Of a DNA stretch of 64,000 bases, positions 42,093 through 63,522 are shown one piece after another. The stretch is from Plasmodiophora brassicae (Eukaryota): assembly GCA_036867785.1 (NCBI GenBank), contig CP145423.1:496001-560000 (forward strand), written 5' to 3'. Both the position numbers and the translations under genes were made by a program. Below the pieces are notes generated by a model. The model did not search any database. It saw nothing but the letters and a program-made list of their open reading frames with translations, and had not been told where the DNA came from. Numbering within the stretch: the stretch's first letter is position 1; every line of letters begins with the position of its first letter.

Positions 42093-42552
42093 TTACCTAG
42101 GCGGGTTGCCGGGCGCGTAGAAGTCGTACTCAACGGTCGACATTCGTCGTTCAGCGGCACCGGTTGGCGTTGCCGTGAACATCGTCGTTGGGGACATGCG
42201 CTGGTAGTCGACGTTCCCGATGGACATCCGCTGGAACTGGGCTCGCGCCATGTGCTGGGATGCGCTGGACCAGTCGAAGGCAGTCGACCCGAACGCGGAT
42301 GTCGTCGGCGGTGTCTCAATTCGCATCAGGGATCCGTTCATCTCGTCATAGTGCGGTTGGACTTGCTGCTGGACAGCAGCGAACGGCGAGTTTGGCGCCG
42401 GCTGGAAATGGAACATCGGGTACTGGGTCGGCGCAAACTGCATCTGTTGTGGTTGCTGCTGTTGCTGCTGCTGCTGCTGCTGCCGCTGCTGATGCTGCTG
42501 CTGTTGTTGTGGCGCCTGCGCTTGCTGCGACTGCTGCTGTTGCTGTTGCTGC

Positions 42553-42584
<32 letters not shown>

Positions 42585-43367
42585 TTGTTGCTGCTGCTGC
42601 TGCTGTTGTTGCTTTGGGGAATGCGCCAGCGGTTGAGCGAACGGAATTATGGGGTTGCCAAGTGACGAGGCACCAGCGTTCTGTGGCGGAATGACGGCCA
42701 TGGACATCGATCGTGCCTGGTCGACGTTCATGCTCTCGTTCTTGATATAGACGGGAACCGACTGCGACTGCGGCCGCGTCTGGACGTCGTTCGCCGCCTG
42801 CGATCGCTCTTGCGCTTCCTTCATACGCCGCAGCTCCAGCAACAGCGACTCGTTCTGTTGCCGCAGGAACATAACCTGCTGCTGCAGCTCGTCGATCTGC
42901 GTCCGCTGCTTCGTGATCGTGTCGGTGGACTTCCTCGAGATCAGGTGCAGCAGGTCGAGGCGGCCGCGCAGGAAGTTCGGATGCCGGAACTCGCTTGCGC
43001 CGTTCACCAGGGACGTCTTACTGAACCCGTAGAAGTGGAGCTGCCTGACGAAGGACGCGAAATTGGCGTGCTTGAAGAACATTGGAAGGACTTCGGCGGC
43101 CAGGACGTTCGCGTCTCGCACCAGGAATCCGGTCCCGCACGGCAGCCATGATACGCATTCATGCGCCCCGATCATGGAGTACGTCTTTTGGATGAAGGGC
43201 GTCTGCTTGGCATCGGTCGGCAACGCCTCTCCGTACGTAGCTGGGTCGTCGTCGTGCACTTTAATGGGCGGCACGGGCGCGGATACACCGCGCACCCGCG
43301 TCTGCACCGGGGCGCTCATATCGGACACGCTCCTGCTGCCCGGGCGCGTCAGCGCTTCGGTCGTCAT
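42093..43367 (-). CDS. Heat-shock-factor (HSF)-type transcription factor with coiled coil and polyQ
   Basis: PFIQKTYSMI...VSW...F...LPMFFKHANFASFVRQLHFYGFSK...EFRHPNFLRG, followed by a heptad region. Confidence 0.93.
42443..42612 (-). repeat. CAG/CAA trinucleotide repeat (polyglutamine)
   Basis: (tgc/tgt)n tract on the + strand. Confidence 0.95.
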
Positions 43368-43821
43368 TTTCGTACTGGCTGCGCCGACGGCGGTTCGCGA
43401 GCGTTCGCGACGTGTCGTCTTCCGACGCAATGGCAGATTAGGGCCGAAACTCCGCCGTGCGTGGACTGTGACGGATTTAGACCGGCTGGTCACCCCGCGC
43501 AAAATCGCGCACTTAACGTTCGGGTGCCGCGCGGCCGCCCACTCGCAAAATGCGGCCGCCCGAACCGAACAGAACTCTCTCGATGCCGGTCGCGCTCTGT
43601 GACCCACTGTACCACCCCTCGCACTATAGCCGCCCGGGGTTGACTGTACCAATGGTTAACACACCTTCGAACTTAACGACGGGCAATCGCCAACGTGTGG
43701 CGTACCCGTACGCGAGCGGCTTTTGATTTATTCGTTCCGTTTAGGAATGGATAAATTCCGTTCCTATTCTATCCACTATCAAGTGTGCCAGGGGCGTAAG
43801 CACGCAACAGCTGCATCGCGG

Positions 43822-43970
43822 CGCAGTCGCGACGCTACAGCACCGCAGTCGCGACACTGCAGCACCGCAGACGCGACACTGCAGAACCGCAGACGCGACA
43901 CTGCAGCACCGCAGTCGCGACACTGCAGCACCGCAGTCGCGACACTGCAGCACCGCAGACGTGATGCTGC
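43822..43970. repeat. 22-bp minisatellite, 6 full units and 1 partial
   Basis: Unit cgcagWcgcgacactgcagcac. The last partial unit contains the ATG of the ligase gene. Confidence 0.93.
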
Positions 43971-46162
43971 GCCGGTTGGTCGTGTATGCGCTTCGCGGTG
44001 GCGTCCGCCGCGCTCGCGCAGCGCCGGCAGCGGGCAAGAACGACGGGGCGGTCGCGGCGGCCACGCGGATCACCGAACTTCGCGACTGGCTGTCGCGATG
44101 TAGCCGGGCGTACTACCGCGGGGAAACGCCGCTGGCGACCGACCCGGAATTCGACGCCGCCATGGGCGAGCTCGCCGAACTCGAATCCCGGTTCCCGTAC
44201 ATGAAGTCGCCGTCGTCGCCGACGTCGCAGATCGGCACGCATCCGCTGACGTTCCTCACCGAGCCGCATTCGCAGGCGATCGTGCCGGTGCGGTGCGTCG
44301 GTGCGCTGGACGACGTCACCCTGTACATGCGGCAGGTGCCCGGCGCGACCTGGAGCGTCGAGCACAAACTCGACGGGATGACGGTCGCCTTGCGCTACGA
44401 CCAGAACGGCAACCTCGTCAAGGCGATCTCGCGGGGCGACGGCGAGTACGGCGATGACATCACGTTGGCCGTCAAACGCTACGCGAAGAACGTCCCGGTG
44501 CAGGTCGACAATAAGCTCGGCGCTCCGTTCGAGGTGCGATGCCAGGCCGTCGTAGACGCGAAGAACACGACGACGTCGACGGCGCTGCGTGCGCAGATCG
44601 CCGCCCTGCTTCGTCCGGTCGTGGAGAGCGCCCCGGACGCGTCGAAGGCCATCGACCTGGTCTGCAGTGACCTGCTACGTCAGGACGAGGCGGACGATTC
44701 CGACCACTCGCACTACGACGACATGCGCATGCTGGAGTCGATGGGATTCGCGATCGACTCCGACCTGGTGACCTGCACCGAATCGGAGAACGTGCTGACC
44801 GCGATAGCGCACCTGCAGGCCGGTCGCCAGAGGTACCGGTACGAATGCGTTGGCGCCATTGTCAAGCTGGACAGCTCCGCCGAGCGGCGGCGTCGTCGCC
44901 GCGCGGGATCGGAGTGCTCGGTGGCGTTCATGTTCGATACGGCGCGGGCCGAGAGCGTCCTGGAACGCATCGACATCACGGTCGGCAGGTTCGGCAAGGT
45001 GTCGCCGATTGCTGTCGTCCAGCCTGTCAAACTCGGCCACGTAACCGTCACGCGGGCGACATTGTTCAGCGCCAAGAACGTCGTCGGTCTCGGCGGCGGC
45101 GAACCGGGCGACATTGTCGACCTCCAGCAGTTTGGCGACGTCCTCCCGAAGGTGCTCAAGATTGTCCCGCAGAGCTCCAGGACGACGGATCCGCGTTCGC
45201 TGTTCGAAGTCTGCCCGTGCGGGCGGAAGTCGAAGCTGAAATTCGACGAGGGTGCACTGGACGCCTGGTGCGTCGACGAGGAGTGCCCATCGATTCGGGT
45301 TGCTCGACTGGCGCACGCTGTCTCGAAGGACGCCCTGGACGTCAAGGGTGTCGGCGTCGCGTCCGTAACGCAGCTGGTGCAAGCCGGCCTCGTTCGTGAC
45401 ATTCCGGATCTGTTCCAGCTGCGCAAGCGCGATCTCGTTCTGTTGCCGGGTTGGGATCGCCGAACGGCGACCGCGGCCGTCGCGAACCTCGTTCAAGCTC
45501 GGACGCGCGGCGACCCGCTGGGCCTGCTGAACTGTCTCGGCATTGAGGGCGTCAGTCGGGAAATGTGCCGCCGTCTGCTGAGGAACTTCGGTCTGTCCCC
45601 TGAGCGCGTGCTTCGCGCCGATCTGGACGAGCTTGCCGAGGCGCGTGGTGTCGGCCGTCGTGTGGCGGAGGCGATCGCGAAATTCGCCCAGAGCGAACGG
45701 GGCGCGAACATCATCAAGGCGTTCCGCGACCTGGGGCTGTTCGCGTACACGACTGGCGACAGCACTACCGCCGCGCCCACGTTCCCGATGTCGGGCAAGA
45801 TTGTCGTGCTGTCGGGCAGGTTCAATCGTTTCGACGTCGATGAGCTCAGGGACCGGTTCCGGGCGCTGGGCGCCCGTATCGGCGACCAGGTCACCGCCAA
45901 GACGTCGTTCCTGTTCGCCGGCCGGGACGACGTCCGGTTCAGCCGCAAGATGAAGGACGCCAGGAAGCACGGCGTCCGCGTCGTCCGCGAGGACGAGATG
46001 ATCCAGCTGCTCCAGCTACACGAAGGCGAGGAATACTGCTTCGCCGGGTCGTCCGCGCATATCCCGCTGGGCGTCCGGGCCCCGACGTCGACGTCACCCA
46101 CCTCTGCGACCGCCGATGTCGAAGTCGCCCCACAAGACGTTAATTCAGGGCAACGCGTGTAG
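43964..46162 (+). CDS. ligA: NAD+-dependent DNA ligase (LigA-like), intronless and divergent, with a putative mitochondrial presequence
   Basis: Domain Ia YY...P...DPEFD, motif I EHKLDG, SRGDGEYGDDIT, OB fold VGRFGKVSP...TRATL, Zn finger CPCG...C...C, HhH LDVKGVG and BRCT VVLSGRF...VTAKTSFL. Confidence 0.9.
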   Translation: MLRRLVVYALRGGVRRARAAPAAGKNDGAVAAATRITELRDWLSRCSRAYYRGETPLATDPEFDAAMGELAELESRFPYMKSPSSPTSQIGTHPLTFLTEPHSQAIVPVRCVGALDDVTLYMRQVPGATWSVEHKLDGMTVALRYDQNGNLVKAISRGDGEYGDDITLAVKRYAKNVPVQVDNKLGAPFEVRCQAVVDAKNTTTSTALRAQIAALLRPVVESAPDASKAIDLVCSDLLRQDEADDSDHSHYDDMRMLESMGFAIDSDLVTCTESENVLTAIAHLQAGRQRYRYECVGAIVKLDSSAERRRRRRAGSECSVAFMFDTARAESVLERIDITVGRFGKVSPIAVVQPVKLGHVTVTRATLFSAKNVVGLGGGEPGDIVDLQQFGDVLPKVLKIVPQSSRTTDPRSLFEVCPCGRKSKLKFDEGALDAWCVDEECPSIRVARLAHAVSKDALDVKGVGVASVTQLVQAGLVRDIPDLFQLRKRDLVLLPGWDRRTATAAVANLVQARTRGDPLGLLNCLGIEGVSREMCRRLLRNFGLSPERVLRADLDELAEARGVGRRVAEAIAKFAQSERGANIIKAFRDLGLFAYTTGDSTTAAPTFPMSGKIVVLSGRFNRFDVDELRDRFRALGARIGDQVTAKTSFLFAGRDDVRFSRKMKDARKHGVRVVREDEMIQLLQLHEGEEYCFAGSSAHIPLGVRAPTSTSPTSATADVEVAPQDVNSGQRV

Positions 46163-46325
46163 ACAGTGTATACAGGTTGTGCGGGTCAGCGCGTGGCGTG
46201 CGTCGTACAGCAGGTAGGTAGTTCGGAGCGGCATCGGGTCGGCGCCGGCGTGATTTGCGGGCGCCGCCAGCGGAGCTGCCGAACGGCAAATGCCGTACGG
46301 CATTTGCCTGCGTGTCAGTCTGGTC

Positions 46326-47199
46326 ATGCTGTACATTATCGGGCTGGGCCTCGCCGATGAGGAGGACATCTCGGTCAAGGGCCTGAAGGCGGTGCGCGCG
46401 TGCTCCCGCGTCTACCTGGAGGCGTACACGTCGATCCTGACGGTCGGCGTCGATCGCCTCGAGAAATTCTACGGCCGGCCCGTCGTTGTCGCTGACCGCG
46501 AGATGGTCGAATCGCAATCGGATGCGATCCTCGAGAACGCCGACGTCGAGGACGTTGCGTTCCTCGTCGTTGGCGACCCGTTCGCGTAAGCAGGGCCCTC
46601 GGCGCGGGGCTTCTCAACCTGAATCGGTGTATTTCAGGGCAACGACTCACGTTGACTTCTTGCTGCGAGCGGCCGAGGAGCGCAACGTGGTCGTCAAGAC
46701 GATCCACAACGCGTCGGTGATGAACGCGATTGGGGCATGCGGCCTGCAGCTGTACCAGTTCGGGCAGACGGTATCGATCCCGTTCTTCAGGGACAACTGG
46801 CGGCCGGATAGCTTTTATGACAAGATCAAGGTGAACAAGGACGCCGGGTTCCATACGCTTTGCCTCCTCGACATCAAAGTCAAGGAGCAGAGCGAGGAGA
46901 ACATGCTGCTCGGCCGGCTGATCTACGAACCGCCCCGCTTCATGACCGTCAACGAAGCGCTGTCCCAGATCGTCGAAGTCGAGGAGCGTCGTCAGGAGGG
47001 TGTCTGCCCTGGCGGGACGCGATGCATTGGCGTTGCCCGCCTCGGTGCTGACGACCAGATGATCGTCGCCGGCACCATCGACCAGCTTCGCGATGTCGAC
47101 TTTGGCGCGCCCCTGCACTGCCTTGTCATTGTCGGCGAGACGCATTTCATGGAGGACGACGCGCTTCGTTTCTACAGTGTCGATAAGCTCAAGCAATGA
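46326..47199 (+). CDS. DPH5: Diphthine methyl ester synthase; 2 exons
   Basis: [62 protein letters not shown] and GAPLH. Confidence 0.97.
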
Positions 47200-47856
47200 A
47201 AACCGTGTCGTTTCGCGACTCGCTTTTCCGTCTGCAATGTTCGATCGAGCTGGAAGGCTTCGGCAGCGTCTGTTAAGTGCCTCTTCGGTCGGGTCGTACT
47301 GACCGTTGCCAGATATCGGCAGCTGTGCACTTGCCACGACACGCAGGCGTGTGCCCAGCGCCGACTTTGATGCGTCCCTTGCAGAGAAACGACCGCCTGT
47401 CGCAGGCTGGCTGTGTCGCCTAGGCGGCTGCACTGCCTTATTATGCCAACGTTTGACGCGCGAGCAATCGCAACGCGTTGTCAACCGATACGTTCCTCTG
47501 ATGCAGACAATGTGGCCTATGTTTAGGTTGAGTTGGGTACTGCAGGGCGACAGCGAGAGCGCTTGACACGAAGCGGGTCGCGCGAATGTGTACTGGTAGG
47601 AACAATGACCCGCACGGTTCGTCGTCGGCGGCGTGTACTCCCGATCGATCGCGTATTCTACCACGGTCGTCGACGTCGTGGCTTCAACGACGACGGGTCC
47701 CTCAGTGTCGCCTGCAGGTTTCGCGCCGGGTCACGTTTGCCGAAGTTGCGGGCCCGGTGACGTCGACAAGGCAGGACGTGACGTCACGCCCGACCTGGGC
47801 GCGCGTCCATCTTGCCACGCGATCTTAGCGGGCGTCGGCGCCGAACATTGCCGAAC

Positions 47857-61065: not shown

Positions 61066-63522
61066 ATGGACGTCTGGCGCCGCCTCCAAGTCACCGCGCG
61101 CCGATCGGTGGCGTCCCGGGCGCATCATTCGACCGTTGCGGATCGCTCGGCGCCCGGGCGGTGTCAGGCGTTCGCGGATCGACCCACGATCCCGCTGGCG
61201 GTGGCCACGTTGTCGCAGGAGACGGACGCCGATCGCGGATGGGACGTGTACCGACGCGCGCTGCCGGGCGCGGACACCCGACTGTTCCAGGCCATGATGT
61301 GGTTCTGCATGCGGCACGCGCCGGCGAAGGCCCCGGAGGTGATGCAGGCGGCGGCCGCATCCGGGATCCAGGATCGCCCGTTGCTGATCGCGTTCCTGGG
61401 CGCCTGTCGAGCCGCGTCGCCTCCGATGATGGCGGAGGCCCTGGCGGCGTACGCGTCATCCGGCCCCGGATGCGACGACCGCCTCCTCTACGACCTCGCT
61501 GACATCTGCCGGCGGGCCGGCCGTCCCTGCGCCGCCCTATCGCTCGTCTCGGACGCCATCGACAAGAACGTCAGGTTCGGACCCGGCCTCCTGTCCATGT
61601 TCGCGGCGTGCTGCGCGGCGGCCGGCAGCGAGTCCCCCGACGCCGCCGCCGCCGCCGCCGAGCAACTGCTCAACGTCGTCCGTTCGAACCTGGCCCCCCC
61701 GCCGGACAAGCCGCCGTTCTTCGTCAACGTCGCCAAAGCCCTACTCGCGCATCGTCGCTTTGACTCGGCCGCGTCCGTCCTCACGTTGATGGAGGCGCAC
61801 AACGTCCCGCCGGGGATCCAGATCTACACGCTGATCCTCGCCGGCCTCGCCAGGGCGAATCGCTCCCGTCAGGCGATGGCCGTGTTCCACGCCATGGTGC
61901 GGCGAGGCGTCCCCGTTGACGCGCCCGTGTTCACGTTGCTCGTCAACGCGTGCGGCCGGTGCCGGGACCTGGACGCGCTGCGGTCGCTGCATGCGCACGC
62001 GTACCAGCGGCCGGCTCTGCTGGACGACATTGGCGCCTGCTCGCTGATGTTCGCCTACGATCGTTGCTGGGCGCTGGACGCCGCCGAGCGGATGTTCCTG
62101 GAGCGGTGCGCCGTGTCGGCACCGACGACGGCGATGCTCCACGTGATGATCGTGGCGTACCGGCGCCATGGGCGCCTGGGTGTCGCCGTCGACACGTTCG
62201 AGCGCATGAAGGCGTCCGGGGTGCCGATCCCCGACAGGACACGCCAGAACATGCTCTGCGTGTATTCCAAGGCGGGCCTGGTTGACGAGGCGCTGGACCT
62301 GTTCCGGTCGGCGACGACGAACGTTGACACGTCCGCCTTCGTCATGCTGGTGCAGGCGTGCGCGCGGGATCGTCCCGCGCTCGCCGACCTGCACCGGCAC
62401 GCCATGGAGCGGTCGCTGATGCGTCAGGACGACGTTCTGGTTGCGTTCGTGTCCGCGTACCAGCACGCGGGCGACCTGCCCGCTATCCAGAACCTGCAGG
62501 CGTATGCGTCGGGGACGCTCTTCTGGCAGCACGATGCGGTTCGCAGCGCGTTCATCCTGGCGTACGCGTACTGCAGCAGTATCGACCTGGCCGAACGCGT
62601 GTTCGACGACCGGCGCGCGTCCTGCCTGACGTCCATGGTCGCCGCGTACGCCCAGCACGGGCTCCTGCCGGAAGCCATGGGCGCCTTCCGTCAGTTCACA
62701 GGGGCCGGGTTGCGGCCGAACAGCAACGTGATCGGGCACCTCCTCCAAGCGTGCGCCCGTGCTGGCGCCCTGCACGAGGCAGCGGATCTCGTCTCGGCGC
62801 ACGGTGCCCATTGGGCGCCGGGCCATGCCGTGCACGTCGTCGACCTGTACGGCAGGATCGGCGACCTGGACCACGCCGAGCGCCTCGCTGCCGACGACCT
62901 GCTGTCGCTGATGACCGTTCTCGCCGCTTGCCGATCGCACAAAGACGTGGCTCGTGCCGAACGCGTTCTGGGCCGGATCCGATCGACGGCGCTGTCGCCG
63001 GCGAACGTGCTGGCGGCCGCCTACCGCATCATGTCGGACGTGTACGCGAGCGTTGGCCGTGCTGGCGATGTCGCCCAGCTGCACGACGAGATGCGGGCGA
63101 GGAACCTGACGGTTGTCCCCGGGAGGACCACGGTCATCGTCGACGACCGCGCCGTGCACTTCCGGTCCGGCGACGACGCACACGACCCGAACCTTCGCGA
63201 CGCCCATCGACGTCTGATGAAGGACCTCGAAGCGCACGGGTACGCCACTGACCCGTGCACGGTCGTGTCCAGCGAATCGCCGCTGGACGCGCGACGATCC
63301 GTTCGCGGGCACAGCGAGAAGCTCGCGCTAGCGTTCGCGCTCAGCGCCCCTCTGCCGGCGGGCGCCCCGATCCGCCTGGCGAAAACCACACGGGTCTGCC
63401 CCGATTGCCACGACGCCGCCAAGCGCGTCTCCCAGATCTACGACCGCGACGTCTACCTGCGGGACGAACGACGGCATCACCGGTTCCGGGACGGCCAGTG
63501 CTCCTGTGGAGACGTCTGGTAG
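61066..63522 (+). CDS. DYW-type pentatricopeptide-repeat protein (PPR array, E-like region, DYW deaminase), intronless
   Basis: PPR motifs (IYTLILAGLA...FHAMVRRGVP; LTSMVAAYAQHG...GLRPN; HVVDLYGRIG), PG box (VPGRTTV), HSEKLA, RVCPDCH and RD..RHHRFRDGQCSCGDVW*. Confidence 0.95.
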   Translation: MDVWRRLQVTARRSVASRAHHSTVADRSAPGRCQAFADRPTIPLAVATLSQETDADRGWDVYRRALPGADTRLFQAMMWFCMRHAPAKAPEVMQAAAASGIQDRPLLIAFLGACRAASPPMMAEALAAYASSGPGCDDRLLYDLADICRRAGRPCAALSLVSDAIDKNVRFGPGLLSMFAACCAAAGSESPDAAAAAAEQLLNVVRSNLAPPPDKPPFFVNVAKALLAHRRFDSAASVLTLMEAHNVPPGIQIYTLILAGLARANRSRQAMAVFHAMVRRGVPVDAPVFTLLVNACGRCRDLDALRSLHAHAYQRPALLDDIGACSLMFAYDRCWALDAAERMFLERCAVSAPTTAMLHVMIVAYRRHGRLGVAVDTFERMKASGVPIPDRTRQNMLCVYSKAGLVDEALDLFRSATTNVDTSAFVMLVQACARDRPALADLHRHAMERSLMRQDDVLVAFVSAYQHAGDLPAIQNLQAYASGTLFWQHDAVRSAFILAYAYCSSIDLAERVFDDRRASCLTSMVAAYAQHGLLPEAMGAFRQFTGAGLRPNSNVIGHLLQACARAGALHEAADLVSAHGAHWAPGHAVHVVDLYGRIGDLDHAERLAADDLLSLMTVLAACRSHKDVARAERVLGRIRSTALSPANVLAAAYRIMSDVYASVGRAGDVAQLHDEMRARNLTVVPGRTTVIVDDRAVHFRSGDDAHDPNLRDAHRRLMKDLEAHGYATDPCTVVSSESPLDARRSVRGHSEKLALAFALSAPLPAGAPIRLAKTTRVCPDCHDAAKRVSQIYDRDVYLRDERRHHRFRDGQCSCGDVW

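Follow-up and report, generated by a model that had tools for sequence, protein, structure and literature searches.

An apparently degenerate LigA ortholog in a phytomyxid-like nuclear contig, within a little-noticed eukaryotic clade of NAD+-dependent DNA ligases

NAD+-dependent DNA ligases (LigA) are described in a recent review of ligases as absent from eukaryotes, and are treated there as selective antibacterial targets (PMC7470946). Scattered exceptions are nevertheless in print. Sequences from Ostreococcus lucimarinus and Dictyostelium discoideum are named in the Fig. 1 legend of Yutin and Koonin (2009), which describes a tree of NAD-dependent ligases (PMC2806865), and the accounts of the rhizarian Paulinella micropora list three nuclear K01972 genes, of which one has a transit peptide for the chromatophore, another a predicted mitochondrial one and the third neither (PMC9450145, PMC7826189). 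In the same accounts, the copies of several such genes that carry mitochondrial transit peptides are proposed to serve mitochondrial DNA replication (PMC9450145, PMC7826189). Finally, the poxvirus protein A20 is presented in a preprint as an inactivated derivative of NAD-dependent ligase that functions as a replication processivity factor (bioRxiv 10.1101/2022.11.22.517515). The subject of this report is a LigA-family open reading frame (ORF) in a stretch of 64,000 nucleotides of contig CP145423.1 (positions 496,001 to 560,000 of the forward strand), the whole of which is referred to as the window. Nuclear phytomyxid LigA genes with organelle-type leaders add to the little-noticed exceptions (Paulinella, Ostreococcus, Dictyostelium), in a group of crop-root parasites that are also virus vectors. 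As judged from sequence, the window copy appears to be a cellular LigA ortholog that has become catalytically degenerate, in a eukaryotic LigA clade that has drawn little notice, and it is this degeneracy, not seen in its relatives, that is the new part of the finding. The finding is a modest one and changes no paradigm, as the family is known, orthologs are already annotated in the lineage, and we infer the function and location of the product.

The relatives of the window copy are few. An exhaustive HMMER scan of 1.84 billion representatives (E <= 0.001) gave 19,357 matches, only two of which are closer than 34% identity. These are P0010 (50%, 578 bits), the Plasmodiophora brassicae 'DNA ligase (NAD(+))' (CEO97386.1 / A0A0G4IQI0), and P0011 (37%, 366 bits), the LigA of Spongospora subterranea (A0A0H5QU68), both known as LigA from database annotation only; the next match scores 253 bits. 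A search of the literature, outside which supplements fell, found no paper discussing phytomyxid LigA genes, and within the same limits the word 'ligase' occurs 0 times in the P. brassicae genome-architecture paper (PMC6823432). The initial annotation of this stretch had named, as a point that would count against it, that such ligases might be widespread and already characterised in the lineage. Half of this proved true, in that the genes are annotated in P. brassicae and Spongospora and are in print for other eukaryotes, whereas no biochemical characterisation was found.

The ORF runs uninterrupted on the plus strand from an ATG at 43964 to a stop codon at 46160-46162, encoding 732 amino acids, and there is no in-frame ATG between it and the preceding stop. 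An intronless ORF between HSF and DPH5 genes, with a complete LigA architecture, had been described at this position, and the coordinates (43964-46162, plus strand), the HSF neighbour (PF00447) and the spliced DPH5 neighbour were all recovered. The ORF can be divided as follows, with domain scores compared with those of relatives.

43964..46162, plus strand: LigA-family ORF, 732 codons and stop; covered in 4/4 examined runs with 0 differences
43964..44050, plus strand: presequence-like N-terminal extension, residues 1-29 (MLRRLVVYALRGGVRRARAAPAAGKNDGA), recognised by composition, amphipathic helix and length relative to bacterial LigA
44051..44263, plus strand: domain Ia, binding nicotinamide mononucleotide (NMN), residues ~30-100, aligned to E. 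coli LigA from residue 7 on
44264..44953, plus strand: nucleotidyltransferase (adenylation) domain, residues ~101-330; Pfam 85 bits versus 154-160 in three relatives
44366-44368, plus strand: K135 of KLDG, the kept motif I Lys
44543-44545, plus strand: Q194, in place of the motif III Glu
44849-44851, plus strand: V296, in place of the motif IV Asp
44930-44932, plus strand: M323, in place of the motif V Lys
44954..45187, plus strand: OB-fold domain, residues ~331-408; Pfam 55.8 bits versus 74-90 in relatives
45188..45298, plus strand: Cys4 Zn-finger region (C417, C419, C436, C441) with clade-specific CPC spacing
45299..45748, plus strand: helix-hairpin-helix (HhH) domain, residues ~446-595; HHH_5 42.3 bits versus 36-40 in relatives
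45782..46018, plus strand: BRCT domain, residues 607-685; Pfam E 8e-10; P0010 and P0011 are without BRCT
46028..46159, plus strand: C-terminal tail, residues 689-732, predicted to be disordered, with a predicted local distance difference test score (pLDDT) of 30-36; outside every alignment and without homology

That the ORF and its domain architecture are real follows from the domain matches and from the computed chance of about 1.5e-8 that 733 codons would remain open at the base composition of the window. Pfam identifies the NAD-ligase adenylation domain (residues 128-308, E 8e-24), the LigA OB fold (residues 331-405, E 4.3e-15), HhH (residues 525-576, E 1.1e-10) and BRCT (residues 607-682, E 8e-10), and the NCBIfam model TIGR00575 is matched end-to-end, with residues 39-679 aligned to model positions 1-652 (E 5.1e-107). 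LigA chains in the PDB cover residues 32-683 (T. filiformis 1dgs, E 1.4e-61; E. coli 2owo, E 3.8e-58). The AlphaFold model, built on a 23-row alignment, has a mean pLDDT of 81.7, with values under 50 only at residues 1-25, in the loops 89-96, 219-226 and 596-605, and at 689-732, and its top Foldseek matches in the PDB are all LigA (for instance 2owo_A, E 8.7e-44, TM 0.66 on the target). Membership in the LigA family is thus seen in the presence of every module (Ia, nucleotidyltransferase, OB, Cys4 Zn finger, HhH and BRCT) and of the LigA fold. The four Cys of the Zn finger have CxC spacing in place of CxxC, and this CPC arrangement is common to the window copy, P0010, P0011 and the environmental sequence P0186.

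The active site is another matter. The claim of a complete LigA architecture stood for the domains, as found by Pfam, NCBIfam, PDB and AlphaFold comparisons, and did not stand for the catalytic centre, where Q194, V296 and M323 are found and where the ORF falls under both curated NCBIfam equivalog cut-offs (TIGR00575, 358.9 versus 444.45; NF005932, 352.2 versus 369). With residues mapped by HMMER alignment to E. coli LigA (2owo numbering), the positions kept are K115, the KxDG nucleophile (window K135), D117 (D137), G118 (G138), R136 (R157), R200 (R209), R208 (R217), R277 (R288) and K290 (K301). The positions replaced are G172-E173 of RGE (window C193-Q194, reading RCQ), D285 (V296), K314 (M323), T334 (F343), the HN of the LHN motif (F368, S369), the Arg of RAGDVIP (Q389) and G521 (S531), the last being Gly in 146/147 sequences. 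While the invariant KxDG columns of motif I are retained as K135-L-D137-G138, the columns of the motif III Glu, motif IV Asp and motif V Lys are invariant in 147/147 other representatives, with all three residues retained by P. brassicae and Spongospora. These two proteins and P0186 also retain RGE, DG..K, the motif V Lys, GRTG (GKTG in Spongospora) and RSGDVIP. E173, D285 and K314 are reportedly each individually essential in E. coli LigA, from mutagenesis by the Shuman laboratory. In the review's description of the mechanism, the motif III Glu contacts the AMP ribose, and the motif V Lys contacts the AMP phosphate and re-orients it through the chemical steps (PMC7470946).

Outside the catalytic motifs the picture differs between domains. 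In domain Ia, window residues Y50, Y51, D60, F63 and D64 correspond to E. coli Y22, H23, D32, Y35 and D36, which we take to be the NMN-contacting residues; the Y50, D60 and D64 columns are invariant, and the Tyr to Phe change at position 63 is common to all three phytomyxid proteins. Domain Ia is required only for the reaction with NAD+. For the OB and HhH domains, we take E. coli R333, T334, R379 and the hairpin glycines including G521 to be nick-binding positions, some of them presumably essential, and here the window copy keeps R342 (E. coli R333) and has F343 for Thr, Q389 for an Arg that its relatives keep, and S531 for Gly. T334, R379 and G521 are themselves said to be essential in E. 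coli LigA. In the BRCT domain, V625 stands in place of an Arg that is invariant in 147/147 sequences. A run of six Arg lies at residues 307-312 (44882-44899; ERRRRRRAG), just upstream of the lost motif V Lys and at a place where P. brassicae has RLRLGSTARAP.

The extent of the loss can be judged against the family at large. In a 150-sequence MAFFT alignment, five columns that are invariant in the 147 other representatives are changed in the window copy (E to Q194, N to A210, G to A214, D to V296 and K to M323). When 32-34 columns that are invariant or have one exception are counted in a leave-one-out fashion, the window copy has 11 mismatches, as opposed to 0 (n=128), 1 (n=18) or 2 (n=3) in the 149 others, with 0 in the P. 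brassicae ortholog and 1 in that of Spongospora. Among the 94 columns that are at least 90% identical in the 147 other representatives, the window copy keeps 64, P. brassicae 73 and Spongospora 71, where about 10 of the 94 fall in the BRCT domain that the latter two proteins are missing. The Pfam scores follow the same division, as those of the adenylation domain (85 versus 154-160 bits in three relatives) and the OB fold (56 versus 74-90 bits) are reduced, whereas that of HHH_5 (42 versus 36-40 bits) is not lower. Taken at face value, these replacements make the window copy a probably catalytically degenerate protein, in contrast to its relatives.

The rate and distribution of substitutions point in the same direction. 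The terminal branch of the window copy is longer than that of P. brassicae in both FastTree (0.73 versus 0.31) and IQ-TREE (1.08 versus 0.36), and a Tajima-type count assigns 70 changes to the window lineage and 46 to P. brassicae with Spongospora as outgroup (p = 0.026), or 49 and 10, respectively, with a 4-of-6 consensus as outgroup. When columns are binned by their conservation among bacterial-type sequences, and the share is taken in which one species has lost the consensus and the other has kept it, the window copy has lost 25% of the most conserved class, 29% of the second, 33% of the third, 39% of the fourth and 58% of the least conserved class, for which the corresponding losses in P. 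brassicae are 0%, 3%, 11%, 32% and 48%. The window lineage has thus shed most of the constraint that LigA normally shows at individual sites. By domain, the columns with at least 60% conservation that are lost in the window copy number 5/24 in Ia, 22/55 in the nucleotidyltransferase domain, 9/31 in OB, 0/5 in the Zn finger and 6/30 in HhH, with P. brassicae losses of at most 2 per domain. A clear contrast in rate between the core and the rest (47:23 versus 20:22, Spongospora outgroup) was considered and set aside, as it weakened in conserved columns and all domains were relaxed.

Some constraint nevertheless appears to remain. Homology runs without a frameshift to residue 685 and the frame is intact across 732 codons, the four Cys and most of the fold-defining Gly and Pro positions are retained, and variable columns are still more changed than conserved ones (58% versus 25%). 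Neutral substitution was simulated on the ORF in 1000 runs until 25% of residues had changed, a figure equal to the loss in the most conserved class. Counting stop codons only, the frame was still open in 0.1% of runs with uniform targets and in 7% with GC3-like targets (GC3, GC content at third codon positions), and indels would be expected to push both figures lower. The frame, the fold residues, the confident model and the residual gradient across columns together favour a protein that is under some selection and freed from catalytic requirements.

The LigA gene is resident in a eukaryotic nuclear contig and is represented in RNA-derived contigs, as is evident when it is seen alongside its two neighbours.

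42093..43652, minus strand: HSF-type DNA-binding protein, divergent upstream neighbour (PF00447, E 1.2e-22); contigs on the gene in 4/4 examined runs
46326..47199, plus strand: DPH5 (diphthine methyl ester synthase), downstream neighbour; exon 1 46326-46585, intron 46586-46637, exon 2 46638-47199

Exon 1 of DPH5 matches PF00590 (E 3.8e-9), named eukaryotic DPH5 proteins share 44-66% identity with exon 2, and the intron is of 52 nt with GT..AG borders. The LigA stretch is contained in sequencing runs of 8 studies, and four runs (from four studies, guessed beforehand to be RNA) were aligned as assembled contigs. Because a contig skipping exactly 46586-46637 is found in 4/4 of these runs, the contigs derive from spliced RNA. 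In 2/4 runs (X6, X18), the contig with spliced DPH5 continues back through the entire LigA ORF, and in the other two, separate contigs cover the ORF from 43929/43932 to 46176/46185; in none of the four is there a base difference, insertion or deletion relative to the ORF. GC3 of the ORF is 0.84, compared to 0.76-0.87 in five neighbouring genes, and the LigA gene is therefore fully adapted to this genome. The window as a whole has a GC content of ~60%, and Table 1 of one of the Paulinella papers gives 59% GC and a mean intron of 60 bp for P. brassicae (PMC7826189). Several of the runs that contain the stretch are labelled plant metagenome, and the host is probably a phytomyxid-like protist other than P. 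brassicae and Spongospora. The placing of a bacterial-type LigA gene in a eukaryotic nuclear chromosome is thus borne out by the GC3, the eukaryotic neighbours and the joined, spliced DPH5, and the proposed check on expression and on the link to the flanks gave a positive answer, with contigs of 4/4 runs covering the ORF and 2/4 joining it to spliced DPH5.

The window copy, P0010 and P0011 form a clade in the trees that were made, namely a 181-row FastTree and IQ-TREE trees (LG+C20, 'quick') of 54 and 40 rows, with SH-aLRT support of 99-100 and with the window copy as sister to P. brassicae at 97-99. The environmental sequence P0126/P0186 (762 amino acids) joins the phytomyxid clade with support of 96 in FastTree and of 99 in the 40-row tree, which leaves out LigB and other long rows, whereas in the 54-row tree P0186 is adjacent to the three phytomyxid proteins in an unresolved position. 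In this last tree, P0186, the LigB row and the three phytomyxid proteins lie on one side of a branch at 97, and the remaining 49 LigA rows, bacterial and viral, on the other. P0186 has the CPC zinc motif, SRGDG, intact catalytic motifs and a BRCT domain, and its leader suggests a eukaryotic origin. An alga-like environmental LigA, P0006 (1043 amino acids, with large inserts and a long Arg-rich N-terminal extension), falls outside the phytomyxid clade, and P0126/P0186 and P0006 together suggest that organelle-type LigA genes exist in further unsampled eukaryotes and have more than one origin. P0010 and P0011 end directly after HhH and have no BRCT match in Pfam, unlike the window copy and P0186, whether by true loss of the domain or by truncation of the gene models. 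One NCBI name of the P. brassicae protein is tagged '(mitochondrion)' despite a contig of 1.36 Mb, which looks like a labelling oddity.

As to where the gene came from, the initial annotation had proposed a lateral or endosymbiont origin, of which the bacterial-type family holds whereas a specific donor could not be shown, as the eukaryotic LigA clade branches, by a long stem, apart from every bacterial and viral row sampled. The best non-clade scores against a profile of the clade are those of Kapabacteria-like and other FCB-group sequences (~556 bits, with the clade at 991 or above), which do not group with the clade. In IMG/VR, 163/235 pattern matches encode relatives, the 80 retained of which are 23-30% identical to the window copy, and the 10 viral rows of the 54-row tree fall outside the phytomyxid clade; a viral donor was accordingly rejected, there being no close viral sequence. 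Searches of genome and viral contig collections with the three phytomyxid proteins found no relative. From these trees, which include no named alphaproteobacterial set, a specific donor, whether endosymbiont or alphaproteobacterial, viral or other, is not nameable.

The N-terminus of the window copy reads MLRRLVVYALRGGVRRARAA. This sequence, earlier quoted as an Arg-rich and acid-free leader, was confirmed as a real extension, with one acidic residue to be added to that description. Among residues 1-29 are 6 Arg and 1 Lys against a single acidic residue (D27), which gives a net charge of +6, and the helical hydrophobic moment of residues 2-12 is 0.70, at the 97.8th percentile of the protein's own 11-residue windows. 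The window copy has 49 residues before the invariant Tyr of domain Ia, as compared to a median of 25 (5-95% range 20-41) in 147 other LigA representatives, 39 in P. brassicae and 38 in Spongospora. AlphaFold places a low-confidence short helix at residues 2-10 (pLDDT < 50). The leader therefore has the properties by which a presequence is recognised, namely an extension past bacterial homologs that is rich in Arg, nearly free of acidic residues and able to form an amphipathic helix. Basic leaders of a similar kind are found in the P. brassicae ortholog, which opens with the identical first five residues (MLRRL), in that of Spongospora and in P0186, where the leader has 64 residues and 13 Arg. 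To our knowledge, phytomyxids are without a plastid and the mitochondrion is their sole DNA-containing organelle. The window copy is therefore probably mitochondrial, by way of a leader with the features of a classical matrix-targeting presequence.

The explanation favoured here, to which we would give about an even chance of being right, is that of a vertically inherited and probably mitochondrial phytomyxid LigA, for which constraint has been relaxed in the window copy and which is kept as a non-canonical or non-catalytic DNA-binding protein. The window gene would be a nuclear gene of a phytomyxid-like (plasmodiophorid) rhizarian, belonging to a small eukaryotic LigA-type clade marked by a basic leader and the CxC Zn variant, and inherited vertically within phytomyxids from an original bacterial-type donor that the data do not resolve. 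In the phytomyxid ancestor and for the P. brassicae ortholog, the leader would be cleaved and the enzyme imported into mitochondria, where it would seal nicks in mitochondrial DNA in an NAD+-dependent manner, a role suggested by the intact motifs and the leader and paralleled by the Paulinella proposal. In the case of the window copy, the gene would still be transcribed and translated and its frame maintained, while constraint on the catalytic core would have collapsed. With Gln, Val and Met at motifs III, IV and V, adenylate transfer and phosphodiester formation should be severely impaired, and the remaining C-shaped DNA clamp (OB, Zn, HhH, BRCT) could attach to DNA, nicked or duplex, or serve as a scaffold. 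The product has most likely ceased to seal nicks in the canonical way and is probably kept, under weaker selection, as a non-catalytic or strongly impaired DNA- or nick-binding protein, probably in the mitochondrion. What the data show directly is the gene with its domains, its relatives, the substitutions and its presence in RNA-derived contigs, whereas its targeting to the organelle, the loss of activity and a retained non-catalytic role are all features that we infer for the window copy. A more specific version is offered tentatively and falls short of even chances. In it, an organelle-targeted ligase would have become a part of the mitochondrial nucleoid or replisome that binds DNA or nicks without catalysis, the active enzyme being still in use in sister lineages.

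Several observations sit uneasily with this favoured explanation. The nucleophile K135 and D137, G138, R157, R209, R217, R288 and K301 are all retained, and so are the NMN-contact residues of Ia. As this domain serves the reaction with NAD+ alone, their retention would agree with an enzyme still capable of self-adenylylation. The persistence of K135 and of the Ia residues is what the favoured explanation chiefly leaves unaccounted for, and it leaves room for residual or altered nucleotidyl transfer; more speculatively, the six-Arg run at 307-312 may partly replace the lost motif V Lys. Relaxation, although strongest in the catalytic core, extends to every domain but the Zn finger, a pattern that also fits early pseudogenisation, and the core differs from the remaining domains only marginally (Fisher p = 0.048 or 0.27, depending on the outgroup). 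Under GC-biased mutation, the stop-codon argument alone gives P ~0.07. A profile search listed no paralog, although the search was not exhaustive and also missed P0126 and P0186. The contigs, moreover, give neither strand nor expression level nor transcript ends, and the ends near 46176-46185 are no evidence of termini.

Four other readings were weighed against the favoured explanation. The initial annotation's inference of a working component of mitochondrial DNA maintenance corresponds to a fully functional NAD+-dependent ligase that seals nicks in mitochondrial DNA during replication or repair and whose active site is merely divergent. Such an enzyme would agree with the presence and confident folding of every domain, with the kept KxDG Lys, K301 (E. 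coli K290), both Ia-interface Arg and the Ia NMN residues, and with a presequence-like leader common to relatives in a gene that is present in RNA-derived contigs; judging by the intact motifs of P0010, P0011 and P0186, members of the family in this lineage are presumably active, and a LigA with a mitochondrial transit peptide is among those listed for Paulinella (PMC9450145). The window copy itself, however, has 11 near-invariant mismatches where 149 others have 0-2, among them columns conserved in 147/147 (Q194, A210, A214, V296, M323), falls below both NCBIfam LigA cut-offs, and has a flat profile of loss across conservation classes that is unlike that of P. brassicae. In addition, the motif V Lys and motif III Glu that it has lost are described as acting in the chemical steps (PMC7470946). 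Because residues invariant in 147 other LigA are lost, a working role in mitochondrial DNA maintenance is doubtful for this copy, and a functional ligase is considered unlikely. The opposite extreme is a young unitary pseudogene, for which selection has ended, perhaps after takeover by an ATP-dependent ligase, and which is still transcribed and not yet stopped or frameshifted. The loss of 20-40% of conserved residues in Ia, NTase, OB and HhH, nearly independent of column conservation, a terminal branch 3x that of P. brassicae, and a BRCT domain already dispensable in relatives all speak for it, and a frame left open after 25% replacement is not impossible under GC-biased mutation (0.07). Set against this are the intact frame of 732 codons with no frameshift in the homology up to residue 685, a probability of 0.001 in the uniform-target simulation (with both figures likely to be lowered by indels), the greater change of variable than of conserved columns (58% versus 25%), which argues for some remaining constraint, the kept Zn cysteines and most fold-defining Gly and Pro, the confident AlphaFold model, and the identical sequence in contigs of four runs from four studies. 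A pseudogene is thus improbable, if by no means far-fetched.

A third possibility concerns location, as the basic N-terminus might be no mitochondrial signal and the product might be a nuclear or cytosolic protein, for instance a nick-binding or BRCT-mediated repair factor. Targeting is deduced from composition and amphipathicity, Arg-rich N-termini can also be nuclear signals, and the window copy has the BRCT domain missing from its P. brassicae and Spongospora relatives; one of the three Paulinella genes, likewise, is listed without a predicted transit peptide (PMC9450145). Yet the leader stands at the N-terminus, contains D27 as its only acidic residue, forms a short amphipathic helix and is followed at once by the bacterial-type domain, and equivalent leaders occur in four clade members. 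Together with the general knowledge that phytomyxids have no plastid and that the mitochondrion is their only DNA-containing organelle, this makes a nuclear or cytosolic product very unlikely. Bacterial contamination or an assembly chimera would account for the bacterial family and for the lack of an intron in the ORF, but the contig is of 923,546 bases with eukaryotic genes on both flanks, GC3 is like that of the neighbours, the nearest relatives are eukaryotic, the stretch is present in runs of 8 studies, and in two runs the ORF and spliced DPH5 lie on one and the same contig. The RNA-derived contigs effectively refute this last explanation.

Other features of the locus are of more limited bearing. 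A tandem repeat precedes the LigA gene.

43822..43958, no strand assigned: 22-bp tandem repeat, 6.2 copies (Tandem Repeats Finder, 94% matches), ending 5 nt before the LigA start codon

The repeat unit has 6 copies here and none elsewhere in the window, with 0.02 expected by chance, and lies in the probable 5' leader or promoter region of the LigA gene. Short RNA-derived contigs sit on it, and RNA-derived contigs break inside it. At the other end, only 163 nt separate the LigA stop from the DPH5 start (46162-46326), and a single contig spans both genes in 2 runs, suggesting either a very compact spacing or overlapping or read-through transcripts. The HSF-type neighbour contains a very long poly-Gln (CAG/CAA) tract, notably at 42444-42618, where contigs of 4/4 runs break. 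Little or no contig cover was found in four runs for the bins 43452-43839 and 47332-47525, and this lack of cover is not evidential. Antisense ORFs at 44675-45970(-) and 46375-47664(-) and an ORF at 43723-44103(+) have no Pfam match at E <= 0.01 and were treated as by-products of high GC. Further neighbours in the window include a TLC/ceramide-synthase-type protein, a ZIP transporter and a pentatricopeptide repeat (PPR) protein of the DYW type. The last is encoded by an intronless ORF of 818 amino acids (61066-63522, plus strand), which has PPR repeats and an E motif and ends in a DYW deaminase domain (PF14432, E 2.4e-24). In plants, proteins of this type edit C to U in organellar RNA, and among protists their occurrence is patchy; the ORF hints at organellar RNA editing or at another lateral acquisition.

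Compared with bacterial LigA (E. coli 2owo and 5tt5, T. filiformis 1dgs), the window copy has the same six modules and fold, aligns end-to-end at 26-33% identity, and also has the KxDG nucleophile, the Ia NMN residues, the four Cys and the HhH repeats. It differs in its eukaryotic nuclear location, its leader of ~24-29 residues, its disordered 44-residue tail and its CxC Zn spacing, as well as in the replacement of E173, D285, K314, G172, T334, the RAGDVIP Arg and G521 and in its sub-cut-off NCBIfam scores. The LigA proteins of nucleocytoplasmic large DNA viruses and phages belong to the same family and have the same architecture, but are only 23-30% identical (80 retained of 163) and do not group with the phytomyxid clade. 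The phytomyxid orthologs P0010 and P0011 are the closest relatives and have the basic leader, the CPC Zn motif and SRGDG in common with the window copy; in these, however, all catalytic motifs are kept and BRCT is missing, and the P. brassicae protein evolves ~3x slower. With intact motifs, the enzyme of these relatives could be a lineage-specific component of mitochondrial DNA maintenance.

Among other eukaryotes, the Paulinella genes are the nearest parallel in kind, as nuclear LigA-type genes of a rhizarian with organelle-targeting extensions; the comparison is by description and not by sequence, and the published accounts of these genes report no catalytic degeneration. Ostreococcus and Dictyostelium, here represented by a published tree legend, and P0006 likewise exemplify sporadic LigA genes in eukaryotic nuclear genomes, and the position of P0006 outside the phytomyxid clade suggests separate acquisitions. 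With its catalytic residues lost and its frame open and transcribed, the window copy makes both the replacement of a mitochondrial ligase and the birth of a pseudo-enzyme testable. If an organelle-targeted ligase has indeed been converted into a non-catalytic factor here, the case would be a natural experiment in which LigA-type sealing of mitochondrial DNA proves dispensable in one phytomyxid, such that another ligase would have taken over. For the pseudo-enzyme, the nearest functional analogy is poxvirus A20 (OPG148), described as a LigA derivative with a disrupted catalytic site and a non-catalytic role in replication. A20 is viral and has diverged past recognition by sequence, whereas the homology of the window copy is obvious and its nucleophile retained. 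In the window copy, three residues of the catalytic motifs have changed along with eight more invariant positions, on a fold predicted with confidence. Its non-catalytic role is a proposal drawn by analogy and, if true, the conversion may represent a cellular counterpart of A20.

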